A stretch of DNA of 64,000 nt from an uncultured Eubacteriales bacterium (lineage in GTDB: Bacteria; Bacillota; Clostridia; Oscillospirales; Acutalibacteraceae), in NCBI GenBank assembly GCA_964599835.1, contig CAZRHF010000001.1, forward strand, positions 14,556 through 78,555. The letters are read 5' to 3'. The stretch's first letter is position 1. Each line of letters begins with the position of its first letter. Shown here in pieces: positions 33,275 through 48,779 of this stretch. The position numbers were made by a program, and so were the translations under genes. The notes beneath the pieces are model-generated. The model saw only the letters and a list, made by a program, of their open reading frames with translations, was not told the DNA's origin and made no database searches.

Positions 33275-33286
33275 ATACGGCTCCTA

Positions 33287-34608: not shown

Positions 34609-34648
34609 CGTTTCCCCTCCTTGTTTATATTCTATCACACTTCATCCT

Positions 34649-34696
34649 AAAAATAAAGAAGAACACGACATTTACATAAAATAAAGTCGTGTTCTT
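34649..34696 (-). terminator. probable terminator ending the 11-gene catabolic operon
   Basis: 11-bp stem AAGAACACGAC/GTCGTGTTCTT (34659-34669 / 34686-34696). The loop is large (16 nt) and a T-rich tract follows on the minus strand. Confidence 0.5.
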
Positions 34697-34700
34697 TCGG

Positions 34701-36071
34701 TTATACGATTATTCCGTAGTCTGCGTAGTCGAATATGCGTGCATTTTTGTCAGCGTTTATGGCGATAACGGTACCTGCGCGTTCCATTCCTACAATATGG
34801 TGAACGGCTCCGCTGACACCGATGGCAATATAAACGGGAGGCGCTACTGTTTTACCGGTGAGACCTACCTGAGATGCATAAGGCATAAAGCCGTTATCCA
34901 CAAGCTTACGTGTCGAAACTAATTCGGCGTCAAGTTTTTCTGCAAAAGCAGTAACCTTATCAATTTCATTTCTGACACCGTATCCTGCCGCTACAACAAT
35001 ATCCTTTAGTCCGCTTTGAAGAGTGCGGACGGTGGCCATAGCGGGACGCGTTGTGCTTTTTATTGCGGCAATAACGCTTCCCGATAAAGCAGGGCGTATC
35101 ATTATAAGCTCGTTGTTGTTAACCTCAAGAGCCGTACAATCGGCACAAAGGCCAAGCGAAAGGCGGGCGGCCACACGGGCAGACATTCTTTTTGAAAGAC
35201 TGTCGCTCTCCCAAAGCACCGCGTCGGGAGCACCTTCAGAAATAATCTTCGAAAGTAAAGCATCGTCGTCGGAGGGCTCGATAACAGTTATCTTATCAGC
35301 AACACCTTCGGCAAATGAGCGCGGAGATTCACCGATTATATAAACTTCTTTAAGTTTTTCAGACGATTCATTTCTGAGCGAAGAAACAGTATTCTTAGAT
35401 TTTGAAATTCCTTCTATTATGACAGCGTCAAGCTCGCAAAGTGAAATGAATTTACATTTTCTTCTGCCTGATTTATTTTCACTGCTTCGAAGAACTCTTG
35501 TGGGAGAACCGACAAGCCCGCATCTGGATATGTCGGCACCTATATCATCGGCAGAAAGAATCTCAACCTCGCCCAGTTTTGAGCGCAGTCCGGGAAGCCT
35601 TAAAGAATTGATTCGCTCGACCGTTATAAGTGCGGGAAGGCTTTTCATAACCGTTCCTTCGTCTCTTGTTATACATCTGATGCCGTCAGCGTACGATTCT
35701 ATACTCATTACGTTGGTTATAAGATCCATAGCACTAAACACCGAAAGCATCGGACCAACCTGACCTGTATCGCCTACCAAAGTCTGTCTTCCGCATATAA
35801 CAAGGTCTGGTGAAAGCTTTTCAATCGCTAATGACAAAGCATAAGCCGTTGCAAGCGTATCGGCACCTGCAAAAGCTTTATCACTCAGAAGTACGGCTTT
35901 TTTTGCGCCAAGCCGCGTAAGCCTTAGCAGGAGCTCCTTAGCAGACAGCGGCCCCATAGAAAGAAGGGTTATATCTGAAGCATCAAGCCTAAGCGCCGCC
36001 TCATAAGCACAGGCATCGAAGGGATTTATCTCTCCGTCAAGACCCTGCCTGATACAAACAACTATCTTCAT
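34701..36071 (-). CDS. single-chain electron transfer flavoprotein (EtfB-like N-terminal half fused to EtfA-like C-terminal half)
   Basis: N-terminal MKIVVCIRQ..INPFDACAYEAALRL..ADTLATAYALS..LVICGRQTLVGDTGQVGPMLS is ETF-beta-like. C-terminal PPVYIAIGVSGAVHHIVGMERAGTVIAINAD matches the ETF-alpha signature. Start moved to MKIVVC at 36071; the ORF-track start at 36215 overlaps the kinase gene. Confidence 0.85.
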   Translation of the reverse strand: MKIVVCIRQGLDGEINPFDACAYEAALRLDASDITLLSMGPLSAKELLLRLTRLGAKKAVLLSDKAFAGADTLATAYALSLAIEKLSPDLVICGRQTLVGDTGQVGPMLSVFSAMDLITNVMSIESYADGIRCITRDEGTVMKSLPALITVERINSLRLPGLRSKLGEVEILSADDIGADISRCGLVGSPTRVLRSSENKSGRRKCKFISLCELDAVIIEGISKSKNTVSSLRNESSEKLKEVYIIGESPRSFAEGVADKITVIEPSDDDALLSKIISEGAPDAVLWESDSLSKRMSARVAARLSLGLCADCTALEVNNNELIMIRPALSGSVIAAIKSTTRPAMATVRTLQSGLKDIVVAAGYGVRNEIDKVTAFAEKLDAELVSTRKLVDNGFMPYASQVGLTGKTVAPPVYIAIGVSGAVHHIVGMERAGTVIAINADKNARIFDYADYGIIV

Positions 36072-36072
36072 A

Positions 36073-37542
36073 TCAGCGCTCCTTGTAGATAGGCGCAAGG
36101 GCATCGTGAATTTTTTTATATTCCTCAAAAACAGCGCTGTATTTTGCAGTATTCTCGGAATTGGGATAAACGGTATCCTTGACCTTAACGCAAAGCTCTG
36201 CGGCAGTTTTCGCATCCTTAAACACGCCTACGGCAATACCTGCAAGCATGGCCGAGCCGAAAGACGAATCGGAGCTTTCGGTAATTCTCAGAGGAATACC
36301 TAAAACATCGGCAGTAATACCGCTCCAGAGTTTACCTTTAGCGCCGCCGCCGATTAGTGTTGCGGTTTTGTCGTAGGAAACACCGAGACCGTCTAAATAT
36401 CGTTTGCTGTCGAGGAGTGAAAGAGACACGCCTTCCAGTACGGCACGGGTAAAATGCGCCTTGGTATGGGTGGCGCGAATACCGACAAAGCTTCCGCACA
36501 GCATCGGGTCTGCATACGGTGTAAGCTCGCCGTTCAGATAAGGATGGAACATAAGCCCGTCAGAGCCTACATCAATATCCATTGCCTTTGCGTCAAGATC
36601 TTTATACTCTCCTCCGAAGGTATCACGATACCAGCGGTAAGAAGATGCCGCCGCTTTGGTAGCGGTTCCGGGATACCAAAGGCCAGGAGCTACGTGGGAA
36701 TAGTTGACGAGATGTCTGTCAGGATAAGGTTTGTCGGTTATAACACAAATTCTGCCTGCGGTAGCAAGCTTTACGGTAACGTTGCCCTTTTCTACCGCTC
36801 CCGAGGCAAACACCTCCATAACGGTATCGGTAGTGCCGCAAATTACTGGAGTATCCTCTGCAAGTCCGGTTTCGGTGGCGGCTTTTTCGGTAATGCTTCC
36901 GATAATATCGGTGGGAGCTTTAATGGGTGGCAGTACGGAAGAATCTATTCCCGCAAGCCCGCAAAGCTTATCGTCCCATCTCATATCGTTACAGTTAAAG
37001 AGCATACTGCCCTGCGCTTCAATATAGTCGGTGCAAAAAACGCCTGTTAGATAATGTCTTATATAATCTTTTTCAAAGAAAATATATCTTATCTTTGAAA
37101 AGATTTCAGGTTCGTTTTCTTTTAGCCATACAAGCTGAGGCAGGGTCCATATCGTGTCGGGCTTATGATAAGTTTTTTCGAAAATTTCGTCTCCGAATTT
37201 TTCTCTTAAAAGATCAGCCTGTTTGCGGCTTCTTGTATCGGTCCAGTGGATAGCGTTTCTAAGCGGTTTAAACTGCGCGTCGCACACAAGGGAGGTATGA
37301 GTAGCAGAATCGACCGCAACGGCGGCGATTTCCTTTGGTGAAATTTTGCTGTTTTCAAGTATTGCTTTGCAGTTTTTGATTAAGGCAGATATCCAGTCGG
37401 CAGAATCCTGCTCGCATGCACCTTTTTCCACGTAAAGAGTTGGATATTCTACTGTGTTTTCGGCAATTATATTACCTTCTTCGGAAAGTAACGTTGCCTT
37501 TGAGGCGCCGCCGCCAAAATCAATTCCAAGCAGATATTTCAT
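36073..37542 (-). CDS. FGGY-family carbohydrate kinase (xylulokinase-like)
   Basis: YLLGIDFGGGASKATLL..WTDTR..GGGAKGKLW. 489 aa. Confidence 0.9.
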   Translation of the reverse strand: MKYLLGIDFGGGASKATLLSEEGNIIAENTVEYPTLYVEKGACEQDSADWISALIKNCKAILENSKISPKEIAAVAVDSATHTSLVCDAQFKPLRNAIHWTDTRSRKQADLLREKFGDEIFEKTYHKPDTIWTLPQLVWLKENEPEIFSKIRYIFFEKDYIRHYLTGVFCTDYIEAQGSMLFNCNDMRWDDKLCGLAGIDSSVLPPIKAPTDIIGSITEKAATETGLAEDTPVICGTTDTVMEVFASGAVEKGNVTVKLATAGRICVITDKPYPDRHLVNYSHVAPGLWYPGTATKAAASSYRWYRDTFGGEYKDLDAKAMDIDVGSDGLMFHPYLNGELTPYADPMLCGSFVGIRATHTKAHFTRAVLEGVSLSLLDSKRYLDGLGVSYDKTATLIGGGAKGKLWSGITADVLGIPLRITESSDSSFGSAMLAGIAVGVFKDAKTAAELCVKVKDTVYPNSENTAKYSAVFEEYKKIHDALAPIYKER

Positions 37543-37567
37543 AACTTACTCCATTTAAATATTTAAA

Positions 37568-38596
37568 CTATAAGGGAATACACATCACAAGACTTAAGGT
37601 TCCGCAGAAATTAAGTTCTCCGCTGTCGGCACCTATAAAGAAACTGCTTCCTTTTGAAAGGGAGACGGTTTCATTGTCACAGCTAAGCGTTCCTTCGCCG
37701 TCAATAACAACACATACGGCATAGGAATCGCCAAGATCGGTAATATAATTTTCCGAAACATTCAGTCTTTTCATCGAAAACTTATCGGTAAGATCGCTTC
37801 CGACTACGATATTTAAGGTATTGTCTTCCGATTTTGCAACTCTTAAATACTTACTCTTGGTTTCCTCTGCCGAGAAGCATTCATAAGTAAAACAGTCAAA
37901 CATTTTCTCAAAACCAAGACCGCCGTGAAGCTTTTGCTCGGCTAAAATAACGCCCGAAGGAGTTTTCCTTTCCGGGATGACCATAAGATCGCTGGGCTCC
38001 TGAAGCTCGATCATAAAACAGCCTGCGCCGATGGCATGCGGCACTCCCCCATCAACAAACCAGAGATCTCCCGCTCTTACGGGAAATTTATGGAGGCAGG
38101 AAAGCATACCGTTTATATCCTGAGCATCAAAAAGCTTCTTCCAATGCTCTTTGGTGATGCCCTCCTTAAATCCGAGATAAACGCAGGCATCTTTCTCTGT
38201 ATCAAGAATATACCAGCACTCGGTTTTGCCGAAGGGAGAATCAAAATGTTCTTTTGCAAATTCAATAGTAGGGTGGCACTGAATAACAAGCCGTTCTGCC
38301 GAATCGAGAAGTTTCACAAGAATTGACTGCTTGCCGCCGTGTTTTTCTGAGAGTCGTTTACCAAGAAGCTTTTCGGGAGCTTTTTCCAAAAGCTCTTTAA
38401 AATAGCTTCCATTCTCTAAAACGCTGAGACCCTCGTTTGGGACAGGCTTGTCGGGGTTAAAAGCAACGGCGGTAGACGCAAGCCATTCTTCAGGATATCT
38501 TCCGTCGGTTGGGTTTTCCTTTCCCATAAAACGGTCGATCCTTTTACCTCCGTAATAAGCCCGTCTGACGCGGTTTTCTTTAAACTTTAGAACCAT
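37568..38596 (-). CDS. type I phosphomannose-isomerase-like cupin
   Basis: LVIQCHP, GKTECWYIL and GGVPHAIGAG motifs of Bacillus-type class I PMI. Confidence 0.8.
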   Translation of the reverse strand: MVLKFKENRVRRAYYGGKRIDRFMGKENPTDGRYPEEWLASTAVAFNPDKPVPNEGLSVLENGSYFKELLEKAPEKLLGKRLSEKHGGKQSILVKLLDSAERLVIQCHPTIEFAKEHFDSPFGKTECWYILDTEKDACVYLGFKEGITKEHWKKLFDAQDINGMLSCLHKFPVRAGDLWFVDGGVPHAIGAGCFMIELQEPSDLMVIPERKTPSGVILAEQKLHGGLGFEKMFDCFTYECFSAEETKSKYLRVAKSEDNTLNIVVGSDLTDKFSMKRLNVSENYITDLGDSYAVCVVIDGEGTLSCDNETVSLSKGSSFFIGADSGELNFCGTLSLVMCIPL

Positions 38597-38610
38597 AAAA
38601 ACCTCCGGGG

Positions 38611-39261
38611 TCAGTATTTAATCTCGATGTTGTCGCCATATACTCCGGGAACGACTCCTCTATCAATGAGAGGTGTGTTATCAATATGGGCAATTATCCA
38701 CTTGTTTTTCCTAAAAAGCAGTTTATCTTCGTGAATATTATCAAGCGGTATGTTTGTACCCTTTGGAAGAGCAACCACACAACCAAATCCTTTACTTGAT
38801 ACCTCAATAGGACAAAAATGCAGGCTGGTTGCATAGACCTCTATAGCCTCTCCCTTTTTAACGTAAAAGGCTTTGGCTGATGCGGAACTGATCTTACCGT
38901 CAATAATTTCATAGGTATGGGCAAGAATTAAAAGCAAATCGGTTACGGCAATATTAATTTCGCTTGAGGTATGCCATTCGAAGGCATTAAGCTTATTTGA
39001 ATGACCGTAACAATAACCCGTCTGGGTCTCCATCTCGCCAAAATAATCTTCTTTGAAGCGTTTGGAAATTTCAAGCTTTTCAAAAGAATCTACAGATGCC
39101 TCATAAAGGCTGCCGTTTTCGGGGAGAATTTTCTCTTCGGCAACCTTTACGATTTCATTTGTATTAATACTAAGCTTTCGGCCGTAGGAGGCAAACTCCG
39201 GACTATCGACCGAATAAATTTCTATTTGCGGATTAATCTCACGCAGTTTTTCTATATTCAT
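38611..39261 (-). CDS. DUF4867-like protein (putative sugar isomerase)
   Basis: 216 aa in a tight operon position. The family assignment is from memory of similar Firmicute proteins and needs an HMM check. Confidence 0.55.
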   Translation of the reverse strand: MNIEKLREINPQIEIYSVDSPEFASYGRKLSINTNEIVKVAEEKILPENGSLYEASVDSFEKLEISKRFKEDYFGEMETQTGYCYGHSNKLNAFEWHTSSEINIAVTDLLLILAHTYEIIDGKISSASAKAFYVKKGEAIEVYATSLHFCPIEVSSKGFGCVVALPKGTNIPLDNIHEDKLLFRKNKWIIAHIDNTPLIDRGVVPGVYGDNIEIKY

Positions 39262-39264
39262 AGC

Positions 39265-40113
39265 TTAAATCACGGTAATTGTGTGAGAAAAGACAAAGGT
39301 ATCGGCAGGTTTAAGAGCGGTGATACCTTCCTTTTCGGTTATATCATAACTGCTGCCGGGAACATCGGGAATACCGTTCCAGGGCTCTAGGCACATATAA
39401 CCTGCTCCGTGCTTATGCCAGAGAAGGAAATAGGGTGCGCCTTGGAAATCGACCCTTATGGCTCTGCCGGTCTTGCGGTTTCTGAGGGTTGCGGCGCTGA
39501 AATCAATATCCTTAAAGGGCAGTGCATCCAGAATAAAGTACTTGTCGTAGAGAGGAAGCACCTTAGAATCCTTAATAATGGGATATGAGGTTTTCGCAAG
39601 GATATTTCCATACAGATTATGGGCGTTTAAGGTCTGCTCGCTGTCGAAAATAACGTCATAATCCTCAATTCCTTCGGGGGTCGCATACGCCTCGTGTGCA
39701 CCGACGTTGAAATACATGGTATCGACCGACTTATTATCAACCTTATAATCAATCTTTACGGCCTTTCCGCTTAGAGTATATATTACTCTGAACTCAAAGT
39801 CAAAGGGATATGATACCTTGGTTTCATCGGAAGATTTAAGAAGGAAGGTTACAGAATCATCGGTTACTTTCTCCACTTCAAACAAAGAAAATTTAGCAAA
39901 TCCGTGTTTTGTAAGGGTGTATTCCTTGCCGTTTAAGGTATATTTATCGTCCTTGAGACCACCGCATATAGGAAACATTATGGGGGCGGTACCCGACCAT
40001 ATTTCAGGCTTGCCCTCCCACATATATTCGGTATTATCGCAAACGATGCTTCTGAGCTCTGCACCAAGCTCGTTTATCTTTACGGTCAGTTCGGAATTCT
40101 TAATGGTTACCAT
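39265..40113 (-). CDS. aldose 1-epimerase (mutarotase) family protein
   Basis: LTVKINELGAELRSI..EYMW..WSGTAPIMFPICG..HGFA..LWH..CLEPW pattern. Start moved to MVTIKN. Confidence 0.8.
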   Translation of the reverse strand: MVTIKNSELTVKINELGAELRSIVCDNTEYMWEGKPEIWSGTAPIMFPICGGLKDDKYTLNGKEYTLTKHGFAKFSLFEVEKVTDDSVTFLLKSSDETKVSYPFDFEFRVIYTLSGKAVKIDYKVDNKSVDTMYFNVGAHEAYATPEGIEDYDVIFDSEQTLNAHNLYGNILAKTSYPIIKDSKVLPLYDKYFILDALPFKDIDFSAATLRNRKTGRAIRVDFQGAPYFLLWHKHGAGYMCLEPWNGIPDVPGSSYDITEKEGITALKPADTFVFSHTITVI

Positions 40114-40130
40114 AGCTATTCCTCCGTGAA

Positions 40131-40919
40131 TTACTCTACCCAAGCGTGCTCGGGGTCGTTACTGCGGTTAAAGCCCTGATAATCTCCTGCCATAAGCCAG
40201 AGGAAATAGGTCTTATAACCGGGGGTAGAAACGGTAGAGTGATAACCGTAAGGGAATTCTACAAGCTCGTCATTTTTAACTCTGTAGGCCTCATCAAGCT
40301 CACCGTCAGCGGTGTAAAGGCACTGTACTGCAAAGCCCTGTTTAGGGTCAAAGAGGAAATAATATATTTCTTCTGCGATACACTCGGTAGGCATATTATC
40401 CTCGTCGTGCTTATGGGGAGGAAATCCCGCCCAGTTGCCTTCGGTGCAGTAGGCTTCGCCGATAGTAAGTATCTTAGCATTGGAGTTTCCGTCGATGATA
40501 AAGCTGGTCTCACGTTCAAAAGGCTGTCTTCCGAGGAGCTTTAAAACAACGTGATCTTCCCTTAGTACCTGAGGTTCGGTCTTTTCTGAAACAGGGGTTG
40601 CACAAACAGCAATTTTGATATGATCGAGAGCTTCAATATTAAGCTTCTGCTCACGGGGCATATAGAAGCTTTCAGCCTTACGGTTCTCGAAAACGTTCAT
40701 TCGGTTACCGATGTCTTCCCATTTTTCACCGTTAACATTAACGTTACAGTGACCTTCGAGCATTATAAAAGCTGTCTCCTTATTCTCGGTATAAAAGTCG
40801 AGATTCTGTCCTGCTTCAAGCTCGATTATTCCGAATTCGAGCTTTTTAAGACTGCACTCCCCTATTTTGCAGATAGGAGTATATCCGTTTGTAGGCTTAT
40901 ATGCTTTTTTAAAGTTCAT
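40131..40919 (-). CDS. iolB: 5-deoxy-glucuronate isomerase family (IolB-type cupin)
   Basis: EGNWAGFPPHKHDEDNMPTE..EEIYYF..DPKQGFAVQ..YTADGELDEAY..FPYGYHS..YFLWLMAG..NDPEHAWV closely tracks the B. subtilis IolB C-terminal half as I remember it. Confidence 0.85.
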   Translation of the reverse strand: MNFKKAYKPTNGYTPICKIGECSLKKLEFGIIELEAGQNLDFYTENKETAFIMLEGHCNVNVNGEKWEDIGNRMNVFENRKAESFYMPREQKLNIEALDHIKIAVCATPVSEKTEPQVLREDHVVLKLLGRQPFERETSFIIDGNSNAKILTIGEAYCTEGNWAGFPPHKHDEDNMPTECIAEEIYYFLFDPKQGFAVQCLYTADGELDEAYRVKNDELVEFPYGYHSTVSTPGYKTYFLWLMAGDYQGFNRSNDPEHAWVE

Positions 40920-41820
40920 ATCCGTTCTCCTTTAAATATTCTTTAACTCTGTCAAAAGAGGGCACGCTTTCTCTGGCGCCTATTCCCATGCATTTGATGG
41001 CAGAAACCGCACTTGCAAAATGACAGCATTTATAAAGGTCAAAACCTTTAATGATTCCTGCGGCAAAGGCTCCGTGGAATACGTCTCCCGAGCCGTTGGA
41101 GTCAACTACATCGGCAGGATAGATAGGATAGCTCACAGTATTCCTCCCGTCATAAAAGATTCCGCCTTTTTTACCCTGCGTAATGACCACTACTTCGGGA
41201 GAATAGGTTTCAAAAAGCTTTTTTGCTGCTTCTTCTGCGGTTTTAGCTCCGGTATGCTTTAAGGCAAATTCCTCGGAAGGAATCATAATATCGGTTTCGG
41301 TAAGCAGACGTTCAACGCCATCGTAAAGTCCTCCGCAGTCGTAAAGCACCTTAATGCCGTTTTTACGGGCGAGCTTTGCGGCCTCTACTGCGGCATCCAT
41401 CTCATTTCCGTCAACCATAAGAAGCTCGGCAGAAAGGATAGCCTGCTTTTGCTTTTCGCTAAGCTTCAAGGGCGGAAGGTCTCCCTTATCAAAAACACAG
41501 GTGCGGCTTGCGGTATCTCCGCTGAGCCAGATGACCGAAGTGAAAGAACGGTAGCCGTCCATCACTTCGATATTGTCGGTATTTACACCGTATTTTGCAA
41601 AGTCATTTTTGAGGATCTGTCCTGCGCTGTCGGAAGAAAGAACTCCGACGTAGCCTACGTCTTCGCCTAGCTTAGAGGCGGCTACAAGTCCTGTGGCAAC
41701 GGGGCCTCCGCCCGCCTGCTTGCTGGAGAGCGCACGCATTTTTGTGTCCTCGTCGGGATAACGCGGAACGCTGATAAGGGTGTCCATAACACAGGCACCA
41801 ATACCTATAATTTTACACAT
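40909..41820 (-). CDS. PfkB/ribokinase-family sugar(-acid) kinase
   Basis: GIGACVMD..GGGPVATGLVAASKLG..VVDSNGSGDVFHGAFA (the DxNGAGD-type motif). Confidence 0.85.
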   Translation of the reverse strand: MCKIIGIGACVMDTLISVPRYPDEDTKMRALSSKQAGGGPVATGLVAASKLGEDVGYVGVLSSDSAGQILKNDFAKYGVNTDNIEVMDGYRSFTSVIWLSGDTASRTCVFDKGDLPPLKLSEKQKQAILSAELLMVDGNEMDAAVEAAKLARKNGIKVLYDCGGLYDGVERLLTETDIMIPSEEFALKHTGAKTAEEAAKKLFETYSPEVVVITQGKKGGIFYDGRNTVSYPIYPADVVDSNGSGDVFHGAFAAGIIKGFDLYKCCHFASAVSAIKCMGIGARESVPSFDRVKEYLKENGYEL

Positions 41821-41821
41821 A

Positions 41822-42664
41822 TTATTTTGCCTTTCCGTCGGCTCCGACCAGTTTTATCTTATCTAAGGCCATCTTTTTAACCGTTTCGATGGGCTTTTTC
41901 ATAAAGATATCTACTGCAATACTGCGGGCAGGATCTTCAAGGGTTTCTTTTGTACCATCAGCAAATGCACAGCAAACATCGGTGCCGATATTCATCTTAC
42001 GAACACCTGCGGCGATAGCGGCCTTAACCTGATCGTCGGGAATGCCCGAGCCACCGTGAAGCACAAGAGGAATTCCTCCGGTTGCCTCGCGGATAGCTTT
42101 AACGCGCTCAATATCCAGCTTCGGGGGCTTTTTATAATGACCGTGCGCGTTTCCTATGAGGACGGCAAGACAGGTTACACCTGTTTCTTTTACGAATTTT
42201 GCGGCCTCTGCAGGGTCGGTAAACTCGTCCATAGCGTCGTCGTTTACGCTACCTACGTGACCTATCTCGCCCTCAACGCCCACACCGATAGCATTGCAGG
42301 TCTCTACAATGTGCTTTGTGAGCTCAATATTCTTTTCAAGGGGATGAACCGAGCCGTCGAGCATTATTCCCGTAGCACCCCAGCGAAGGGCACGGGTGAC
42401 CTCCCACTCAGAAGGGCCGTGGTCAAGATGGAAACAAACGGGAACACTTGCCTTCTGTGCGGCGGCAACAACTACGGGGCAAAGATAGTATCCGACCTCT
42501 TCGTTTAAAAGACGGGGATAGACCTGAATAATAACGGGGGCCTTCGCTTCCTCGGCGGCGGCAATAACACCCATAACTGTTTCGATATTATATACGTTAA
42601 AGGCAGGAATACAGTAGTTTCCTTCCTCTGCCATACCGATGACGGTTTGTAAATTAACTAACAT
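41822..42664 (-). CDS. class II (metal-dependent) ketose-bisphosphate aldolase family (FBA/tagatose-BP/IolJ-like)
   Basis: IPAFNVYN..APVIIQV..HLDHG..EGEIGHVG..GNAHG..LVLHGGSG. Confidence 0.85.
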   Translation of the reverse strand: MLVNLQTVIGMAEEGNYCIPAFNVYNIETVMGVIAAAEEAKAPVIIQVYPRLLNEEVGYYLCPVVVAAAQKASVPVCFHLDHGPSEWEVTRALRWGATGIMLDGSVHPLEKNIELTKHIVETCNAIGVGVEGEIGHVGSVNDDAMDEFTDPAEAAKFVKETGVTCLAVLIGNAHGHYKKPPKLDIERVKAIREATGGIPLVLHGGSGIPDDQVKAAIAAGVRKMNIGTDVCCAFADGTKETLEDPARSIAVDIFMKKPIETVKKMALDKIKLVGADGKAK

Positions 42665-42676
42665 ATTCCCTACTCC

Positions 42677-43762
42677 TTATCCGAGAATGAGATCTTCGAG
42701 AGAGAGTATCTCAACGTCACTCTGCTCTACGGCCTTAAGCGCCACATATTCGCCTACGCAGGCGGTGACGATGGTCTTTGCGCCAACGCTGGTTGCGTTG
42801 AAGATCCTTCGTTTGGAAACGAGTTTAATGACCTCCGGCATATACTGAGCCATAAGGATATTGCCTGCCCAAACGGTTTCGGCGCGGTTAAGATGAAGCT
42901 CACCGATATTTGCGAATGCAGAAACTACGGTTCTGATCTCTTCGGTTTCTTCAAGGTCGCGGGAAAGCTGATAAGGATCCTGGATAGCAACGGTCTTATC
43001 GCTCTTTGTGGCTGTAAGCTTACCGGTATTTAAGGCATCGGCAAGATATGCGGTATAGGTTACTACCTTTGCGGATGTCTCGATTCCGTATTCTTTATAA
43101 AGCTGTTTGATAGTTTTGGCATCATTAGGATCGTAAACGATCACAGTCTTATACTGTGAGAAAACCTCTGCGGCAGACTGCATCATTTCTTTGGTCTCGT
43201 TCGCAGCTCCGATAAGGAAATCGAGCTGAGCACCGCTGGCGGGCTCGTCAGCTAAGAGGGTGAAGTCTATACCGGTGTTTTCTATAACTTTTATCGCCTT
43301 AACTGCCTGCTCGCAGGCCATAAAGCGTGCATCAACTCCAAGATATAAAAGAGTATCGGTCTTGGCGGTATGTGTTTCTATAGAAGCCTTTAAGGTATCG
43401 CAGAGCTCTGTTTTGCCGTAAGCATTTCCGTTTTCAAGACAGTTATCAAGTAAAACGTTTATGTAGGAAGGAAGCTTATCTTCGAGGGCGGCCTGCAGAC
43501 GGGTCTCCTTGGTGAACATTACGGGATCCCAACCTGTTACACAGTCGTGAACGCAGGCGCCGCAGGTGCAACATTCATAAATGTTGTCCATAATTTCCGA
43601 AAGGTCAATAGCCTCACGGTTAACAAGTGAAATTCCGAGAGCGCGGGCGCGGGCGGTATTTCTTTCCTGACCTGTAGCGTTTCCGACAGGGCAAATATGG
43701 TGACACATCCAGCAGAAACGACAAGCGTCAACGTGCTGTTTGCATTTTTCTGACATAATCAT
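42677..43762 (-). CDS. (Fe-S)-binding protein with 2x[4Fe-4S] ferredoxin-type N-terminus and a GlpC/GlcF-like body with degenerate CCG motifs
   Basis: CRFCWMCHHICP and CCTCGACVHDC give two CX2CX2CX3C motifs. The C-terminal two-thirds has no CCG pairs. Confidence 0.8.
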   Translation of the reverse strand: MIMSEKCKQHVDACRFCWMCHHICPVGNATGQERNTARARALGISLVNREAIDLSEIMDNIYECCTCGACVHDCVTGWDPVMFTKETRLQAALEDKLPSYINVLLDNCLENGNAYGKTELCDTLKASIETHTAKTDTLLYLGVDARFMACEQAVKAIKVIENTGIDFTLLADEPASGAQLDFLIGAANETKEMMQSAAEVFSQYKTVIVYDPNDAKTIKQLYKEYGIETSAKVVTYTAYLADALNTGKLTATKSDKTVAIQDPYQLSRDLEETEEIRTVVSAFANIGELHLNRAETVWAGNILMAQYMPEVIKLVSKRRIFNATSVGAKTIVTACVGEYVALKAVEQSDVEILSLEDLILG

Positions 43763-43785
43763 AGTAATTTTACCTCCTCTTAGAA

Positions 43786-45222
43786 TTAAAGACCGAGCTT
43801 AAACGGATTCATAATTCCGTTGGGGTCGAGCTGTTTCTTAAGTCCTTCAAACACCTGCATCGCAGGGCCGTACTGTTCCTTCATAAGGCGGCCGAGCTTG
43901 ATTCCGACGCCGTGATGATCGTTTACAACTGCGCCGTGAGCAAGGGCCGCGCGAACACCGCAGGTCCAGATTGCCTGATGAAGGCGAAGTGCCTCAACGG
44001 GATCTTCGGGAACGTCTTTACCTTCAACGATAAAGCGGTCGTAGATCATAGAGCCCCATTCATACCAATGAGAAAAGTGTGCAATAAACTTAGCCTGGGG
44101 GAAGTTGGTTTCAATGGCTTCCTTCATCGCCCAGTAGATCTTTTCGATCTTATCGTAAGGAGCAATGGTATCCATAGTACCGAACATCTGGGGAATGTCC
44201 ATCATGTGACCGGGATAGAAGAAGGTGATCTTCTCCTTCCACCACTTTTCACCGTACTCGCTTCCAAGGTCTTCTGCGCCGTATTTTGCAAAAGTAGAGA
44301 GAAGTATCTTCTCCTCGACCTCAACGAGCTCCTTACAGCCTTCAATAGCCACGTTCATAAATGCACCCTTGCGCTCAACGCCGACTATCTTCTTAATGAG
44401 AGAAGAGGTTTCGGCTTCGTCATAAAGACGCATAACAGAAGGCTTGAATTTCTGTAAAAGCTCGCGGGAGGCCTGGAAAGCACCGTGCATATCCTGGAAG
44501 AGAAAGCCACGGAAACGACGTTCCTCAGGCTGGTCGAAAATTCTGATCTGTGCCTTGGTGATAACACCTAAGGTCCCTTCGGAACCGATGAATATCTGGT
44601 TAAGGTCGGGACCTGCGGCGTGCTTGGGAGCAGATGCGGTATTGATGATGTCACCGTTAGGCAGAACGACCTCCATCTGAAGCACCATATCGTCGATCTT
44701 TCCGTATTTGGTGGAGCAGACACCTATACCTCTGTGGGCAAGGAAGCCGCCGACGGTAGAGCAGGTGAGCGAAGAAGGATAGTGCATGGTCGCCTTTCCA
44801 ACCTCGTTTGCGGCCCATTCGATATGCTTATAAATAGCACCCGTACCACACTCAATATACATACCCTCGGTATTTACCTCGTAGATCTGATTCATACGCT
44901 TGGTATCGAGTATGATACCGCCGCATACGGGAATTGCGCCGCCTTGTGTTCCGCCGCCTGCGCCCCAGGTAGTTACAGGGAGCTTATAGTAGTTAGCGAT
45001 CTTCAGCACCTTAGAAACTTCTGTAGCATCCTTAGGACAAACAACGATATCTGCCTCGGGCATACGGCATCCGCGGTCGGCCCACATACGGGAGAGCCAG
45101 TAATAGTCTACGCTGTGGGTAACCTTGTCGATAGCGCGGGTAGAGCAGTTTTCCACTCCTACGGCGTCCTCAATTTCGGTGAGGATCATTGAAAACAAAA
45201 ATTCGTTCATCTGGATCTGCAT
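43786..45222 (-). CDS. FAD-binding (VAO/PCMH family, FAD_binding_4) dehydrogenase
   Basis: LPVTTWGAGGGTQGGAIP..GGIILD..TVGGFLA..GPDLNQIFIGSEGTLGVIT. C-terminal AHFSHWYEWGSMIYDRF. AAGGAGA SD. Confidence 0.85.
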   Translation of the reverse strand: MQIQMNEFLFSMILTEIEDAVGVENCSTRAIDKVTHSVDYYWLSRMWADRGCRMPEADIVVCPKDATEVSKVLKIANYYKLPVTTWGAGGGTQGGAIPVCGGIILDTKRMNQIYEVNTEGMYIECGTGAIYKHIEWAANEVGKATMHYPSSLTCSTVGGFLAHRGIGVCSTKYGKIDDMVLQMEVVLPNGDIINTASAPKHAAGPDLNQIFIGSEGTLGVITKAQIRIFDQPEERRFRGFLFQDMHGAFQASRELLQKFKPSVMRLYDEAETSSLIKKIVGVERKGAFMNVAIEGCKELVEVEEKILLSTFAKYGAEDLGSEYGEKWWKEKITFFYPGHMMDIPQMFGTMDTIAPYDKIEKIYWAMKEAIETNFPQAKFIAHFSHWYEWGSMIYDRFIVEGKDVPEDPVEALRLHQAIWTCGVRAALAHGAVVNDHHGVGIKLGRLMKEQYGPAMQVFEGLKKQLDPNGIMNPFKLGL

Positions 45223-45236
45223 TTCTTTTTTCTCCT

Positions 45237-46649
45237 TTATTTTATACTTTTATCAACCTTAAGGTTGGGAAAATACTTGCAAAATTCTTCAATTTCTTTG
45301 CGGTAGTCCCCTTCTATCTCAACAAAGTGATGAATATATGGACCGTCAATAAGTCGGTCTTCAACGGCCTGCAGGTTACTAAATTCGCCCCATATATAAG
45401 TTCCGTGAGTCTGAGGACCATCGGTGGTATTGCAGACAAGAGGCAGTATCATATAGTTGCCGCTTTCCTGATCCATTCGGGCAACAGTATAGGTGCCGTC
45501 CTTGCCTCTGAACCATTCACGCTGATTAACAAGACGTGCGGTGCTGTCGATTCCGCTTTCGGCCTTCTGTGAAAGCGGGAAGGGTCCGCAATGCCAAAGA
45601 AGCTCAGCATTCTTATTTTCCGGATGACGCACGGTGAATTCTCCGAATAAGGGCTTGCCCTCACCCATAGTTGCACATTTAAGAAGGGACATTGTGATAG
45701 CGCAGTGAATATCACTTTCACAGGAGACCATATATCCCATATCGTTAAGCATTCCGTAAACCGCACAGGGTGCAAGACCGTCGAACATAACCGGAGTTGC
45801 CGTCCAGCACTCGGCCGACATAACATCGAGATCGAATTCCTCAAATATGTGCTTATATGTTGCGGCAAGGGTTGCCATTGAGTTTATGTATTTCGGTGTA
45901 AGCTCATCAAGTTTGAAATTACTAAGGAAATATTTTTCATATTCGGCAATTTCATCAGCATAAAGTTCCTTAGCGGCATTAAAGCGCTGCTGAACCATAG
46001 CGAAGTTTATAGCGATAATGCGAATTCCGAACTTCTCCATAAGCTCGCCTTCGTTGGAAATTACCGAAAAGAAGGGCTGCGGACGTGCACCAAGCTGTCC
46101 GATACGCATTCCTTTGAAGTTTTTAACCATACAGACTACGCGAACGAAAGAGTCAAAGCCTTCGGCAAATTCTTCGGATTCTACCCTACAGCAAGGAAGG
46201 TGTGAAAAGGGAATGTGATAACGTTGCATCTGACGGGAAAGTCCGAAAAGACCGCACTGCGAGTCGGTAGGACGCATTCCGTCAACATAGTACTCATCAT
46301 CAAGAGGGGCCCACAAAAGAACGGGCTTCCCGAGAGCCATAGCAATATCAGCGGCAGCTTCCTCGTTTCCGAAGTTACAGTTGATAATAAATACGGCGTC
46401 GACCTTTTCGTCTTTGAAGCGTTCAACGACCTCTTTAGCAGAAGCATCGTCAAAAACCAGATCTTCGATGCCGATACCTTTATTGTCGACAAACTCTACC
46501 TTGTCAGAGCTGAAATTCTTCTCAATGTATTCGGTAAAGCGTTTTCCGCGTTGCTCAGCCGAATACCAAGTAAGGAAGGTTCCTCGCGGACGGTCGGTAG
46601 TGTTTCTTCGCATAGCGACAAGTCCGATCTTAACTTTATAATCAAACAT
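45237..46649 (-). CDS. L-fucose/L-arabinose isomerase-family protein (uncharacterised subgroup)
   Basis: KIGLVAMRR..AVFIINCNFGNEEAA..LLWAP..PTDSQCGLFG. The C-terminal half has a Fucose_iso_C-like layout. Start taken at MFDYKV with AGGGGA SD. Confidence 0.7.
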   Translation of the reverse strand: MFDYKVKIGLVAMRRNTTDRPRGTFLTWYSAEQRGKRFTEYIEKNFSSDKVEFVDNKGIGIEDLVFDDASAKEVVERFKDEKVDAVFIINCNFGNEEAAADIAMALGKPVLLWAPLDDEYYVDGMRPTDSQCGLFGLSRQMQRYHIPFSHLPCCRVESEEFAEGFDSFVRVVCMVKNFKGMRIGQLGARPQPFFSVISNEGELMEKFGIRIIAINFAMVQQRFNAAKELYADEIAEYEKYFLSNFKLDELTPKYINSMATLAATYKHIFEEFDLDVMSAECWTATPVMFDGLAPCAVYGMLNDMGYMVSCESDIHCAITMSLLKCATMGEGKPLFGEFTVRHPENKNAELLWHCGPFPLSQKAESGIDSTARLVNQREWFRGKDGTYTVARMDQESGNYMILPLVCNTTDGPQTHGTYIWGEFSNLQAVEDRLIDGPYIHHFVEIEGDYRKEIEEFCKYFPNLKVDKSIK

Positions 46650-46685
46650 AACAAGTCCCCTATCAGACAAAATTTTTACATTACA

Positions 46686-46714
46686 ATGATACAAAAATCC
46701 GGAACATATTTCAA
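46686..46714 (-). promoter_or_regulatory. sigma-A-like promoter of the 11-gene operon
   Basis: On the minus strand: TTGAAA (46714-46709), 17-nt spacer, TATCAT (46691-46686). Lies about 35 nt upstream of the ATG at 46649. Confidence 0.45.
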
Positions 46715-46741
46715 TGGTTTTTGAAAATAAATTTTAAAATA

Positions 46742-46770
46742 TTGACTTTTTTTCTTAAAAAAGCTAAAAT
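46742..46770 (+). promoter_or_regulatory. sigma-A-like promoter of the RpiR regulator gene
   Basis: TTGACT (46742-46747), 17-nt spacer, TAAAAT (46765-46770). Confidence 0.5.
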
Positions 46771-46771
46771 A

Positions 46772-46790
46772 AATGAAAATAATTTTCATT
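46772..46790. promoter_or_regulatory. perfect 19-bp palindrome, candidate operator
   Basis: AATGAAAAT-A-ATTTTCATT (9+1+9, all nine pairs complementary) starts 2 nt after the -10 box. A related imperfect copy, TGAAAATAAATTTTAA, lies at 46722-46737. Confidence 0.45.
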
Positions 46791-46802
46791 TGGAGGTATC
46801 AA

Positions 46803-47642
46803 ATGGAAACCGTTACCCAAAAAATCAGAACTTTATATAAAGAAATGGGCCCCGCAGAAAAAAAGATAGCCGACTTTGTCGTCGGAAACCTTAACGATAT
46901 AATGGCGACCTCAATAAGCGAATTATCCGAGCTTTGCGGCTGCGGTGATGCAACGGTGGTCCGTTTTTCGAGACGCCTGGGCTTCGAGGGATACCAGGCA
47001 TTAAAGATCGCTATTGCAGGAGACCTCGGTTCCGCATCGGCCATCAGCTCCGAAATTGAGAAAAGCGATTCCTGCTTTGAGATCTTTTCTAAAAGAATGA
47101 ACGACATAGCCTTAACACTGAGCAATACCCAATCGGTGCTTGATGCACAGGCTCTCGAAAACGCCGCAAAAATTATTATGAAAGCAAAAAGAATTGTTGT
47201 TTTCGGCCTCGGAAATTCGGCCGCGATAGCCTCGGATGCCGCACACAAATTTTTAAGACTGGGACTTAACGCCCAAGCCTGCACGGACAACCATTTGCAG
47301 GCGATCATTGCCTCACATATCGACCGCCAGAGCGTTGCAATAGCAATATCACACTCCGGAGCTTCAAAAGATATCGTAGAAGCGCTCAGGCTTTCAAAAA
47401 TCGGAGGTGCAACTACAATAGCTATTACCAATTTCGGCACCTCCCCCATCGTTGAAGCCGCCGATTTTTGCCTTTTTACCAAGGCCGAGGAAACCCGACA
47501 CTCTATTCTCGCCATGAGTTCCCGAATAGCACAGCTTGCTATTTTCGATGCAATATACACCTACATAGTCGTTAACGCAGACAAGGCCTCAATGCAGGCA
47601 ATCTACAATACAGAATTGGCACTTCAGAACAAGAAATATTAA
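46803..47642 (+). CDS. MurR/RpiR-family transcriptional regulator (HTH + SIS domain)
   Basis: GPAEKKIADFVVGN..ISELSELCGCGDATVVRFSRRLGFEGYQALK. SIS region VFGLGNSAAIASDA..ISHSGASKD. Start at METVTQ with GGAGG SD. Confidence 0.85.
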   Translation: METVTQKIRTLYKEMGPAEKKIADFVVGNLNDIMATSISELSELCGCGDATVVRFSRRLGFEGYQALKIAIAGDLGSASAISSEIEKSDSCFEIFSKRMNDIALTLSNTQSVLDAQALENAAKIIMKAKRIVVFGLGNSAAIASDAAHKFLRLGLNAQACTDNHLQAIIASHIDRQSVAIAISHSGASKDIVEALRLSKIGGATTIAITNFGTSPIVEAADFCLFTKAEETRHSILAMSSRIAQLAIFDAIYTYIVVNADKASMQAIYNTELALQNKKY

Positions 47643-47672: not shown

Positions 47673-48719
47673 CTATTCTTCTATGATCTCTTCAAATCCG
47701 TCGGTATAAAATATTTCATACTTATCGGTGATCCACATCGCATGAACACCGTCAATGCCTTCAACAAGCTTTTTGCCTTCGTCATAAGACATATTAAAAA
47801 GTGCAGTCGAAAGCGCATCGGCAAGACCGCTATCGTCACACACCACCGACACCGAGGTAAAATCAAACTTAGGCATAAGCGTCTCGGGATCGATTATATG
47901 GTGATAATGCTTTCCGTCAACCGTGTAATACCGCTGATACGATCCTGAGGTAACGAAAACCTGATCGGAAAGTCCAACGATCATTACGTAACCGGTCTCG
48001 CTTTCGGGGTCGGGATCAACTACCGAAGCCGTCCACTTTGAGCCGTCGGGTTTTGTTCCCAAGGTTCTTATATTTCCGCCTATATTAAGGGTATATGAGG
48101 TTATTCCCTTTTCCTTCAGATCTGCGGCGACTCTCTCGGTTGCATAGCCCTTCGCTATTGCACCCACGTCCAGCGACATTTCGGCATCACGCAAAAATAC
48201 GGTGCTGTTTTCGCGGTCTATTACGATCTTGGAAATATCGGTATATGCGGAGGCCTCAAGCAGTTTATCCTTAGGAGGAAGACGGGCGTTTTCGGGGTCG
48301 TCAATTCCCCATGTGCGATAGTCGTGCCAAATGGATAGGACACTTCCCATCGCAACGTTGGTTTTACCGTCGGTGATCTCATACAGTCTTATACATTCGT
48401 CAAGCAGATCAATTATTCGTTTATCGACCTTAACGGGCTTGTTTCCTGCGTTCTTGTTTACGGTGCAGAGATTATTGATCCCCGCATAGGTTTTGTAAAT
48501 ATCGTAAAGCTTGTGATATTCCGACAGCTCTTTCTCGATGAATTCGGCATTTACATTGAATTCTTCCTTGCTTGATTCAAAGCCAACTACAGTTGAAACC
48601 GTATCGAAATAATCGAGATAGGTCTCGGTGAATTTTTGCTTCTCCTGCACTGATCTGCAGGAAGAAAACACTACTATTAAACTGCAGATAAGAGCAAGTG
48701 AAACAAATCTTTTTGTCAT
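47673..48719 (-). CDS. apbE: FAD:protein FMN transferase (ApbE family) lipoprotein
   Basis: Lipobox VFSSCRS. YLDYFDT..VAMGSVL..DVGAIAKGYA..NIGGNI..VTSGSYQRY..HHIIDP. Start moved to MTKRFVS with GGAGAA SD, downstream of the neighbouring terminator. Confidence 0.85.
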   Translation of the reverse strand: MTKRFVSLALICSLIVVFSSCRSVQEKQKFTETYLDYFDTVSTVVGFESSKEEFNVNAEFIEKELSEYHKLYDIYKTYAGINNLCTVNKNAGNKPVKVDKRIIDLLDECIRLYEITDGKTNVAMGSVLSIWHDYRTWGIDDPENARLPPKDKLLEASAYTDISKIVIDRENSTVFLRDAEMSLDVGAIAKGYATERVAADLKEKGITSYTLNIGGNIRTLGTKPDGSKWTASVVDPDPESETGYVMIVGLSDQVFVTSGSYQRYYTVDGKHYHHIIDPETLMPKFDFTSVSVVCDDSGLADALSTALFNMSYDEGKKLVEGIDGVHAMWITDKYEIFYTDGFEEIIEE

Positions 48720-48736
48720 AAAACGTTCTCCGTTTT

Positions 48737-48768: not shown

Positions 48769-48779
48769 TAAGCGGTTAT

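Follow-up and report, generated by a model that had tools for sequence, protein, structure and literature searches.

What does a bacterium break down with an operon in which two sugar kinases, an aldolase, and several isomerases are interspersed with a flavoenzyme, an iron-sulfur protein, and an electron-transfer flavoprotein (ETF)? The question is raised by eleven consecutive minus-strand genes (G1 to G11) that run from 46649 down to 34701 in a 64,000-nt stretch of DNA, here called the window, from an uncultured Eubacteriales bacterium of the family Acutalibacteraceae (assembly GCA_964599835.1, contig CAZRHF010000001.1, positions 14,556 to 78,555). As we describe below, the eleven genes form one real, conserved operon for the breakdown of a sugar or sugar alcohol, built around a flavoenzyme whose active site resembles that of alkyldihydroxyacetonephosphate synthase (ADPS). 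It is a catabolic sugar operon that probably contains a new enzyme function.

A conserved operon with a strict core

The listing of open reading frames (ORFs) exactly reproduced the layout reported in a first-pass annotation of the window, with junctions of 14, 23, 12, 1, -11, 17, 3, 14, 25, and 1 nt between successive genes. The transcription signals described there were also found: a promoter-like site in the 123-nt divergent intergenic region common to G1 and an RpiR-family regulator gene (HTH_6 and SIS domains), where a plausible ribosome-binding site is also present, and a terminator after the last gene. The region 34640-34705 folds into a hairpin (-20.4 kcal/mol; z = -4.98 versus shuffles) followed by a T-run; our consensus promoter/terminator scanner overlooked it because of its long loop. 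The consensus scan returned promoter- and terminator-like matches inside the operon in modest excess over shuffles, and an Rfam scan of the operon found no riboswitch or leader. We placed the start of G11 at the ATG at 36071, rather than at the upstream ATG of a longer 504-aa ORF; in a homologous locus, the corresponding gene is likewise annotated as encoding 456 aa.

The arrangement is not a product of chance, because the gene order recurs in more than 80 independent loci. Relatives of the iron-sulfur protein G3 were present in 342 GTDB species genomes, and the best 80 loci all belonged to metagenome-assembled genomes (MAGs) of Acutalibacteraceae or Oscillospiraceae, mostly from ruminant and other herbivore guts. 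The common order is G1-G2-G3-G4-G5-G6-(accessories)-G10-(accessories)-G11. We counted genes over 59 Oscillospirales loci spanning G2 to G11 and analyzed recurrent neighbors over 84 loci. The flavoenzyme G2, the iron-sulfur partner G3, the IolB-type isomerase G6, the FGGY kinase G10, and the ETF G11 occurred in all 59 loci, the PfkB-family kinase G5 in 58, and the class II aldolase G4 in 57; the redox genes therefore do accompany the IolB/PfkB/aldolase set, a co-occurrence that the first-pass annotation had proposed to check. These seven proteins constitute the strict core. G1 was found in 43 loci, G8 in 28, G7 in 19, and G9 in 4, making G1 dispensable and the other three accessories. The earlier suggestion that several isomerases feed two kinases thus mixed core with accessory functions, as G7, G8, and G9 are dispensable and G1 is missing from about a quarter of the loci. 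Median identity across loci was 75% for G3 and 63% for G11.

The regulator beside the operon is of the RpiR type in ~29 related loci, and an AraC-type regulator occupies the same position in 23. The first-pass annotation saw no transporter in the operon; this holds for the window, but an AEC-family transporter lies inside the operon in 18 related loci, often in the place of G9. NagA and NagB-like inserts occur in 11 and 9 loci, respectively.

A divergent protein of the NagB/6-phosphogluconolactonase fold is encoded between the FGGY and ETF genes of several homologous loci (L012, L013, L016, L022, L037, L060, L074, and L084) and beside the FGGY kinase gene in other phyla (L087, 5677-6531; L089, 15275-15988). 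The partner changes with the lineage: Oscillospirales have NagA, L087 has an Amidohydro_2 protein, and L089 has a polysaccharide deacetylase. Entry by deamination, or hydrolysis of a phospho-lactone, would be possible roles for the NagB-fold protein. Two further insertions, a GH30 glycosidase gene between the Fe-S and aldolase genes of L048 (2188-3564) and a gene for a PF12831 FAD-dependent oxidoreductase between the PfkB and IolB genes of L042 (12894-14111), are possible clues to a natural glycoside source.

Table 1. Genes and predicted transcription signals of the operon, in window coordinates.
Feature	Position	Strand	Family support, length, remarks
G1, putative AraA/FucI-fold isomerase	45237-46649	-	470 aa; frequent but dispensable
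G2, VAO-fold flavoenzyme, ADPS-like active site	43786-45222	-	PF01565 + PF02913; 478 aa
G3, Fe-S partner	42677-43762	-	Fer4_8/Fer4_17
G4, class II ketose-(bis)phosphate aldolase	41822-42664	-	PF01116, 2.6e-87
G5, PfkB-family sugar kinase	40909-41820	-	PF00294, 1.5e-43
G6, IolB-type cupin isomerase	40131-40919	-	PF04962 (KduI/IolB), 5.6e-71
G7, aldose 1-epimerase	39265-40113	-	PF01263, 2.4e-28; accessory
G8, DUF4867 cupin	38611-39261	-	PF16161, 2.8e-66; accessory
G9, type I PMI-like cupin	37568-38596	-	PF21621, PF20511; rare accessory
G10, FGGY kinase, XylB-like	36073-37542	-	PF00370 + PF02782
G11, single-chain EtfB-EtfA fusion	34701-36071	-	PF01012 x2 + PF00766; 456 aa
RpiR/MurR-family regulator, divergent	46773-47642	+	HTH_6 + SIS
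Promoter-like site upstream of G1 (predicted)	46686-46714	-	TTGAAA-17-TATCAT; consensus scan, 10/12 matches
Intrinsic terminator past G11 (predicted)	34649-34696	-	hairpin -20.4 kcal/mol, then CTTTATTTTT

The flavoenzyme has an ADPS-like active site

The first-pass annotation took G2 for a VAO/GlcD-type dehydrogenase. The VAO fold stands (Pfam PF01565, 2e-34; PF02913, 4.6e-19), but four results argue against the GlcD/lactate type. First, the best sequence matches of G2 in the PDB were ADPS structures (2uuu and 4bby), with D-lactate dehydrogenase (D-LDH) behind. Second, in a residue-level alignment of G2 with 2uuu, 4bby, 4bca (Y578F), 4bc7 (R419H), and mouse LDHD, in which the mutant entries mark catalytic positions, the equivalents of Arg419, Tyr578, and His616/617 (HHH loop) of ADPS were R265, Y394, and H436/H437 of G2, located in the motifs SVMRLYD, WGSMIYDRF, and DHHGVG, respectively. 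The EHGIG sequence of mouse LDHD aligned where G2 has DHHGVG, and G2 thus lacks the glutamate of the EHGxG motif, which we take to be a metal ligand in LDHD structures. Third, G2 scored 186.8 bits against the glcD model TIGR00387, whose cut-off of 567.9 was not reached. Finally, the AlphaFold2 model of G2 (predicted local distance difference test, pLDDT, 85.6) had AGPS as its top Foldseek match (template-modeling, TM, score 0.85). On the strength of the residue-level alignment, we rejected a 2-hydroxyacid dehydrogenase of the GlcD/lactate type.

R265, Y267, H382, S384, H385, Y394, H436, and H437 were invariant in 27 family sequences from several phyla; this invariance extends to the residues through which ADPS handles its glycerone-phosphate moiety. 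Median identity of G2 was 93% (range 85-98%; loci L002-L085), compared to 63-85% for its operon neighbors. This high conservation does not stem from horizontal transfer, because transfer would homogenize all genes equally, and strong constraint likely acts on G2. The family comprises ~1,000 clusters at 50% identity (E < 1e-30), and JGI labels relatives of G2 as 'alkyldihydroxyacetonephosphate synthase'.

Although ADPS/AGPS is the best sequence and structure match of G2 and its catalytic Arg, Tyr, and His-His residues are kept, G2 is shorter (478 aa versus 584-658), has no lipid genes around it but those of sugar kinases, isomerases, and an aldolase, and in every locus occurs in a sugar-catabolism context with an obligatory Fe-S or CCG-type partner, joined here by an ETF. 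ADPS is not a dehydrogenase; its conserved residues promote enolization and covalent flavin-N5 chemistry at a carbon adjoining a ketone. The constant pairing of G2 with its partner, and here with the ETF, implies net redox chemistry, unlike the redox-neutral acyl-to-alkyl exchange by which ADPS makes ether lipids. We propose that G2 may be the dehydrogenase for the product of the G10 kinase.

Probable electron partners of the flavoenzyme

G3 consists of an N-terminal region with two [4Fe-4S] ferredoxin motifs and a cysteine-poor HdrD/GlpC-like (degenerate CCG) domain. Its weak model matches were TfrB, LdhH, GlpC, and DsrK, of which GlpC is the Fe-S subunit of anaerobic glycerol-3-phosphate dehydrogenase. 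The G3 gene adjoined that of G2 in every locus examined, both in Oscillospirales and in distant phyla. Across the G3 family alignment, cluster motifs were lost in part in some lineages, and the CCG cysteines were retained in a single Bacillota locus (L088).

The closest PDB relatives of G11 were ETFs of the bifurcating type, those of the lactate dehydrogenase and caffeyl-CoA reductase complexes among them (LctB, 113.6 bits; LctC, 107; CarD, 95.7; A. fermentans EtfB, 103), whereas human and Paracoccus EtfB scored 37-40 bits. Within the single chain, the EtfB part extends to approximately residue 210 and the FAD domain spans residues 357-430, with an intervening stretch far shorter than a normal EtfA N-domain. 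The first-pass annotation counted the ETF as part of the redox module. It was indeed present in all 59 Oscillospirales loci but in none of nine distant contexts, and the ETF is thus a lineage-specific electron outlet of the fermenters, and independently of E. coli, that lies outside the universal module.

The module in other phyla

We found distant contexts with a profile of distant G2 relatives and labeled the neighboring genes by Pfam. Orthologs in these phyla were 48-57% (G2), 36-46% (G10), 34-47% (G4), 33-37% (G5), and 31-40% (G6) identical to the window proteins. A Spirochaetota locus (L090) encodes DeoR, PfkB, FucI-like, IolB, FGGY, VAO, Fe-S, and class II aldolase proteins, and the same seven-gene set was present in three other genomes (L087, L091, and L093), so that outside Oscillospirales the flavoenzyme likewise keeps company with FGGY, IolB, PfkB, and aldolase. 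In a Verrucomicrobiae locus (L089) and in L092, from a 3.5-Mb genome, fructose-6-phosphate aldolase (FSA; TIGR00875, 261 and 309 bits versus a cut-off of 246) replaces PfkB and the class II aldolase, and IolB, FGGY, VAO, and the partner persist where this upper half changes. A Bacteroidetes locus (L086) has FGGY, VAO, Fe-S, PfkB, and aldolase genes, with two GH29 genes and a canonical FucI gene close by, and L088 has RpiR, VAO, a CCG protein, aldolase, a GldA-type dehydrogenase, a TRAP transporter, IolB, and FGGY. Minimal triads of FGGY, VAO, and partner adjoin a CUT2-type ABC system in a Bacillota MAG (L096) and a LacI regulator and ABC system on a Mesorhizobium plasmid (L094).

The regulators in other phyla are of the DeoR, AraC, XylR, or LacI type, and the module without ETF spans Spirochaetota, Verrucomicrobiae, Bacteroidetes, Bacillota, and Alphaproteobacteria. 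The FGGY kinase gene adjoined the flavoenzyme pair in eight of nine distant contexts and in the ninth (L088) was part of the same gene cluster. The FGGY kinase, flavoenzyme, and partner are thus the invariant unit, nearly always accompanied by IolB.

The triad of L096 has as neighbors (15023-17518) a PdxA-family dehydrogenase gene and a gene for a four-carbon acid-sugar kinase of the DUF1537 type, a hint that this organism handles C4 sugar acids or tetritols.

Sugar enzymes of the operon

Pfam and NCBIfam scans of the operon proteins bore out most of the first-pass family calls. No NCBIfam equivalog model was reached by the operon proteins, except by G6, which exceeded the IolB cut-off (TIGR04378, 226.4 bits versus 205; KduI, 24 bits) and matched the IolB-like PDB entry 2qjv.

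G1 had no Pfam match and its PDB sequence search was empty. Against the sulfoquinovose isomerase SftI (NF048012) it scored 101.7 bits, short of the cut-off of 700. An AlphaFold model of moderate confidence (pLDDT 65, predicted TM score 0.67) matched L-arabinose isomerase (TM 0.72) and then FucI (0.61-0.64) in Foldseek at 13-16% identity, and E311, E337, H353, and H441, candidates for the Mn2+/catalytic Glu-Glu-His-His set of this superfamily, were invariant among close homologs. The model suggests that G1 is a divergent aldose-ketose isomerase of the AraA/FucI fold; the first-pass label of FucI family therefore holds for the superfamily fold and for nothing finer.

G4 passed the cbbA subfamily cut-off (250 versus 216 bits) but scored 221-242 bits against tagatose-bisphosphate aldolase models with cut-offs of 383-444, and reached no FBA, GatY, or KbaY equivalog; its best PDB match was YdjI (200 bits), followed by KbaY and AgaY. 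G5 fell below every cut-off (ribokinase, 132 bits; IolC, TIGR04382, 99.5 versus 300; 1-PFK subfamily, TIGR03168, 52.3 versus 216) and had the sulfofructose kinase YihV as its best PDB match (121 bits; ribokinase, 84), which places it provisionally in the ribokinase/YihV/IolC branch. The nearest characterized relatives of G5 (YihV, IolC, and ribose-1-phosphate kinase) and of G4 (YdjI, KbaY, and FBA) act on ketoses with a distal anionic group. G10 scored 376.9 bits against the XylB model, just under the cut-off of 380.25, and G9 scored 91.6 bits against manA, under the cut-off of 116. G8 is homologous to the crystallized SqvB/SftX protein (PDB 9gyy, 1.8e-51), and this DUF4867 family is without an assigned activity (PMC11968277).

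A proposed route and its alternatives

The reading that we favor, with somewhat less than even confidence, is a polyol or sugar route in which a kinase, a flavin-linked oxidation, an isomerase, a second kinase, and an aldolase act in turn; we infer this order, the direction of electron flow, and the substrate class. In the proposed first committed step, G10 would phosphorylate a terminal hydroxyl of a polyol or closely related sugar. G2 would take two electrons from the phospho-polyol to give an aldose or ketose phosphate, isomerization by G6 would then give a ketose phosphate whose C1 hydroxyl is free, G5 would phosphorylate C1, and G4 would split the bisphosphate into dihydroxyacetone phosphate (DHAP) and a second triose (or short aldose) phosphate. 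In these quinone-poor fermenters, the G2 flavin would hand its electrons to the [4Fe-4S] clusters of G3, which would pass them on to the fused ETF (G11); the ETFs that G11 most resembles belong to complexes of the lactate-dehydrogenase type, which handle couples near -190 mV. G1, G7, G8, and G9 would bring in the corresponding free aldoses, NagA and the NagB-like protein of sister loci would bring in N-acetyl-hexosamine phosphates, and the RpiR-type phosphosugar sensor would control the operon. Our leading guess for the substrate is a hexitol such as galactitol, with a tagatose-6-phosphate-like hub; a cultured member of the Acutalibacteraceae ferments galactitol (PMC6675982), which we regard as a lead only.

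Several lines of evidence are consistent with the polyol route. First, the strict core is exactly its gene set, whereas salvage of a sugar fragment, discussed below, needs G1; we prefer the polyol route for this reason. Second, the catabolism of glycerol (GlpK/GlpD) and of erythritol (EryA/EryB) follows the same plan, with a flavin dehydrogenase acting after an FGGY kinase. Third, the DHAP/glycerol-3-phosphate and aldehyde/primary-alcohol couples lie at approximately -190 to -200 mV, and catabolic enzymes for such couples are flavin-linked because this potential is too high for easy NAD+ reduction; a fermenter would therefore use an LctBC-like ETF. Finally, the exchange of PfkB plus aldolase for FSA leads one to expect an intermediate that is a ketose phosphorylated at its far end. 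Parallels to this exchange are PFK plus FBA versus transaldolase on sedoheptulose 7-phosphate, and the Embden-Meyerhof-Parnas-type (sulfo-EMP) versus transaldolase-type (sulfo-TAL) pathways of sulfoglycolysis. The retained ADPS residues of G2, the likeness of G3 to GlpC and of G11 to LctBC, the substrates of the nearest relatives of G4 and G5, the sugar/polyol-type transporters beside the minimal triads, and the gene content of the E. coli ygc cluster also speak for this route.

Other observations weigh against this reading. Judged by its ADPS signature, G2 would be better suited to a ketol phosphate than to a polyol phosphate. The polyol-phosphate dehydrogenases known so far (GatD, MtlD, and SrlD) are NAD-linked and give the ketose phosphate directly, which leaves the need for a flavoenzyme and an isomerase unexplained. 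A fructose 6-phosphate hub would make a dedicated PfkB and aldolase needless, and with a tagatose 6-phosphate hub the FSA swap raises a stereochemical difficulty, as the donors of FSA and transaldolases are D-threo. G5 scores poorly (52 bits) against the FruK/LacC subfamily of sugar-phosphate kinases. Some partner proteins have lost one Fe-S cluster, and a very weak alignment leaves the Mesorhizobium partner with only a single cysteine of the N-terminal cluster motif, so electron transfer via the partner is not universal. Moreover, IolB is the sole equivalog model reached in the module.

The alternative that survives best, less likely but with a substantial share of the probability, starts from a hexose with a blocked C6. 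G1 would isomerize a 6-deoxy or 6-substituted hexose, G5 would phosphorylate C1, and G4 (elsewhere FSA/transaldolase) would cleave the product to DHAP and a lactaldehyde-type fragment; G6 would convert the fragment to a ketol (acetol), G10 would phosphorylate the ketol, and G2 would turn X-CH2-CO-CH2-OP into DHAP by covalent flavin-N5 chemistry, with two electrons passing to G3 and the ETF, for a yield of two DHAP per hexose. The kinase product would have the skeleton of the ADPS substrate, in keeping with the invariant catalytic Arg, Tyr, and His-His residues of G2. The upper half would mirror the duality of sulfo-EMP and sulfo-TAL: the best solved relative of G5 is a sulfofructose kinase, SftI is matched by the G1 family at 102 bits in the window and at 291 bits in L092, SftX belongs to DUF4867, and FSA stands in for PfkB and aldolase in two lineages while IolB, FGGY, VAO, and the partner stay. 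The two GH29 fucosidases and canonical FucI of the Bacteroidetes locus and the GldA-type propanediol/glycerol dehydrogenase of one Bacillota locus also fit such substrates. By contrast, the entry isomerase G1 is absent in 16 of 59 otherwise complete loci, and G10 is XylB-like and near the xylulokinase cut-off, which would be unexpected for a C3 ketol kinase. From standard free energies, we estimate that hydroxylating a methyl ketone with water would have a potential of approximately -50 to +30 mV; in a fermenter, ETF-linked NAD+ reduction could not take its electrons. PF01116 aldolases and FSA give 3S products by established stereochemistry, so L-fuculose and L-rhamnulose phosphates are unlikely substrates, and the minimal triads adjoin ABC transporters of the sugar/polyol type.

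Linked to this salvage scheme is the idea, of similarly low probability, that the G2 family is a new flavoenzyme class in which ADPS-type covalent flavin-N5 chemistry acts on X-CH2-CO-CH2-OP, X (H, sulfonate, or another group) being swapped for a hydroxyl and two electrons passing to the Fe-S partner and the ETF. If true, bacteria of many phyla would gain a second DHAP from the 'unusable' C4-C6 fragment of 6-deoxy or 6-substituted hexoses, and the cryptic ygc cluster of E. coli would be the same flavoenzyme device.

The first-pass annotation regarded G4, G5, and G6 as an orphan lower-inositol trio. In the corresponding route, which we think quite improbable, IolB, an IolC-like kinase, and an IolJ-like aldolase would convert 5-deoxy-glucuronate or a hexuronate to DHAP and malonate or tartronate semialdehyde, and a GlcD-type dehydrogenase with the ETF would handle the acid product or a precursor. 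The IolB member of the trio stands, as G6 exceeds the equivalog cut-off, and YdjI, the best solved relative of G4, reportedly cleaves keto-uronate 1-phosphates (Raushel laboratory). Anion-type transporters are found with the module, namely AEC in 18 loci and DctPQM of the TRAP type in L088, L086 encodes a homolog of the IolO-like 5-keto-L-gluconate epimerase (204 bits), and nearby GH4, GH2, GH30, and GH67-like genes could release uronates. The kinase member does not stand, however, as G5 is far under the IolC cut-off, and the replacement of PfkB and aldolase by FSA in two lineages would be surprising with a uronate and favors a ketose phosphate over a deoxy-uronate. The upper inositol genes and IolA are absent, as the first-pass annotation had stated for the operon: iolG, iolE, iolD, and iolA were not seen among the recurrent neighbors of 84 loci or in the examined window flanks. 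Moreover, G2 is ADPS-like and without the EHGxG glutamate of D-LDH, the universally conserved FGGY kinase would be left without a role, and no aldehyde dehydrogenase or reductase would serve the semialdehyde.

We give very little credence to a new variant of sulfoglycolysis, in which sulfoquinovose would be isomerized, phosphorylated at C1, and cleaved to DHAP and sulfolactaldehyde, whereupon the fragment would be isomerized and phosphorylated and the ADPS-like enzyme would remove its sulfonate. G1 resembles SftI, G5 resembles YihV, G8 is an SftX homolog, a mutarotase is present, and ADPS-type chemistry could plausibly expel sulfite; forage is rich in sulfoquinovose, and among rumen genomes sulfoquinovosidase is carried mainly by Acutalibacteraceae (PMC13219744). 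Among the recurrent neighbors of 84 loci and in nine distant contexts, however, we found no sulfoquinovosidase, sulfonate/sulfite exporter, or sulfolactaldehyde reductase/dehydrogenase, although not every flanking ORF was scanned. The G1 score is far from the SftI cut-off, G7 and G8 are accessories, hydrolytic desulfonation has no need of Fe-S and ETF proteins, and the rumen sulfoquinovose degraders identified so far use a transketolase route (PMC13219744). Both the inositol/uronate and the sulfoquinovose routes are less likely than the polyol and blocked-C6 readings. Other candidates were set aside or found no support in the genes present: MurNAc/D-lactate, N-glycolyl sugars, Amadori products, 4-O-methyl-glucuronate demethylation, heptitols via sedoheptulose 7-phosphate, and a phospho-lactone route with a NagB-like lactonase.

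Neighboring genes in the window

Upstream, adjoining the RpiR gene, window positions 47673-49787 (minus strand) encode an ApbE-family flavin transferase (PF02424, 2.8e-68) after a 335-aa lipoprotein that has an internal repeat and no Pfam or NCBIfam match. The pair could yield a flavinylated extracytoplasmic protein, and its synteny is limited to the closest relatives (L082/L083). A full-length lysine riboswitch (RF00168, 98 bits) at 54936-55102 (minus strand) overlaps the start of ORF 53252-55042, which by the annotation of a syntenic locus encodes a Na_H_antiporter (NhaC-type) membrane protein; this ORF is probably a lysine-regulated transporter gene whose true start codon lies further downstream.

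Downstream of the terminator, 31595-34638 (minus strand) encodes three proteins. The first has 144 aa and no family match, the second is a secreted DNA/RNA non-specific endonuclease (PF13930), and synteny of these two extends to L003-L005 and L082; the third is a Peptidase_C39-like protein of 559 aa with a membrane anchor. A separate sugar locus at 27938-31555 consists of genes for an SBP_bac_8 solute-binding protein, an oxidoreductase of the GFO_IDH_MocA family (423 aa), and an AraC regulator that is transcribed divergently. Three of the distant contexts (L087, L089, and L091) also have GFO_IDH_MocA genes with the module.

Implications

In NCBI and JGI records, each part of the operon is annotated by itself; the labels are FAD-binding oxidoreductase, (Fe-S)-binding protein, hypothetical protein, xylulokinase, and, in JGI, 'alkyldihydroxyacetonephosphate synthase'. 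When the metabolism of gut and rumen communities is reconstructed, the pathway is therefore probably overlooked or mistaken for ether-lipid synthesis. Solving the route would give a carbon source and a pathway name to a common gut function, a catabolic role to bacterial ADPS-like flavoenzymes, and a handle on ten y-genes of E. coli K-12, and might add a new example of ETF-coupled substrate oxidation in fermenters. The taxonomic spread of the operon makes it well worth biochemical follow-up.

Comparison with known systems

The first-pass annotation matched the operon to no known pathway, and we concur: no equivalog beyond IolB was reached, and literature searches on the gene combination, on IolB/IolC/IolJ variants in anaerobes, and on ADPS homologs in sugar clusters found no characterized pathway. 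By their defining tests, none of the inositol, tagatose-6-phosphate, sulfoglycolytic, or GlcD systems is fully matched. For the tagatose-6-phosphate pathway (LacABCD/GatYZ), the LacC/FruK kinase and GatY/KbaY aldolase equivalogs were not reached, although the scores leave room for functional analogy. The sulfo-EMP and sulfo-TAL pathways share with the operon an isomerase, a PfkB-family C1 kinase plus aldolase or a transaldolase/FSA-type enzyme, and a DUF4867 accessory, but their sulfoquinovosidase, sulfonate exporter, and sulfolactaldehyde enzymes were not found here, and the SftI score is remote. The lower myo-inositol pathway of Bacillus (IolB, IolC, and IolJ) shares three protein families and a protein that passes the IolB model, but G5 is no IolC ortholog, upper-pathway genes and IolA are absent at the operon, and outside this lineage the trio goes with FGGY and the flavoenzyme instead and is partly replaceable by FSA.

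In LctBCD of Acetobacterium woodii (PDB 7qh2), as proposed here, a VAO-fold dehydrogenase feeds a bifurcating-type ETF, and LctB and LctC are the best solved relatives of G11. By contrast, G2 is not of the LctD/GlcD type, G11 is one fused chain with a short EtfA N-domain, and a separate Fe-S protein is present here. Closest in logic are the glycerol (GlpK with GlpABC or GlpD) and erythritol (EryA with EryB) pathways, in which an FGGY kinase is followed by a flavin-linked dehydrogenase acting on a phospho-polyol. G3 is weakly similar to GlpC of the glycerol pathway, and the isomerases of the erythritol route come after the dehydrogenase step, as would be the case here. Their dehydrogenases, however, have the DAO/GlpD rather than the VAO/ADPS fold, and these pathways are without a PfkB/aldolase lower half.

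The closest relative as a system is the ygc cluster of E. coli K-12 (ygcN-O-P-Q-R-S-U-W, yqcE, and ygcE), which also combines an ADPS-like VAO flavoenzyme, an FGGY kinase, and an ETF. Our literature searches on the ygc genes found no functional paper, the short gene names matching unrelated words. YgcU is 30% identical to G2 over its full length and keeps the RLYD, ..Y, and HHHG motifs, and the FGGY kinase YgcE is 23% identical to G10. In E. coli, the ETF subunits are separate (YgcQR), a FixC/FixX-like ETF:quinone outlet (YgcNO) and an SDR are present, and the GlpC-like partner, IolB, PfkB, and aldolase are absent. The other neighbors of YgcU are sugar-type transporters and an antiterminator resembling GlpP, which senses glycerol 3-phosphate. 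The gene content of the ygc cluster therefore supports an oxidative, ETF-linked role with an effector of the phospho-polyol type.

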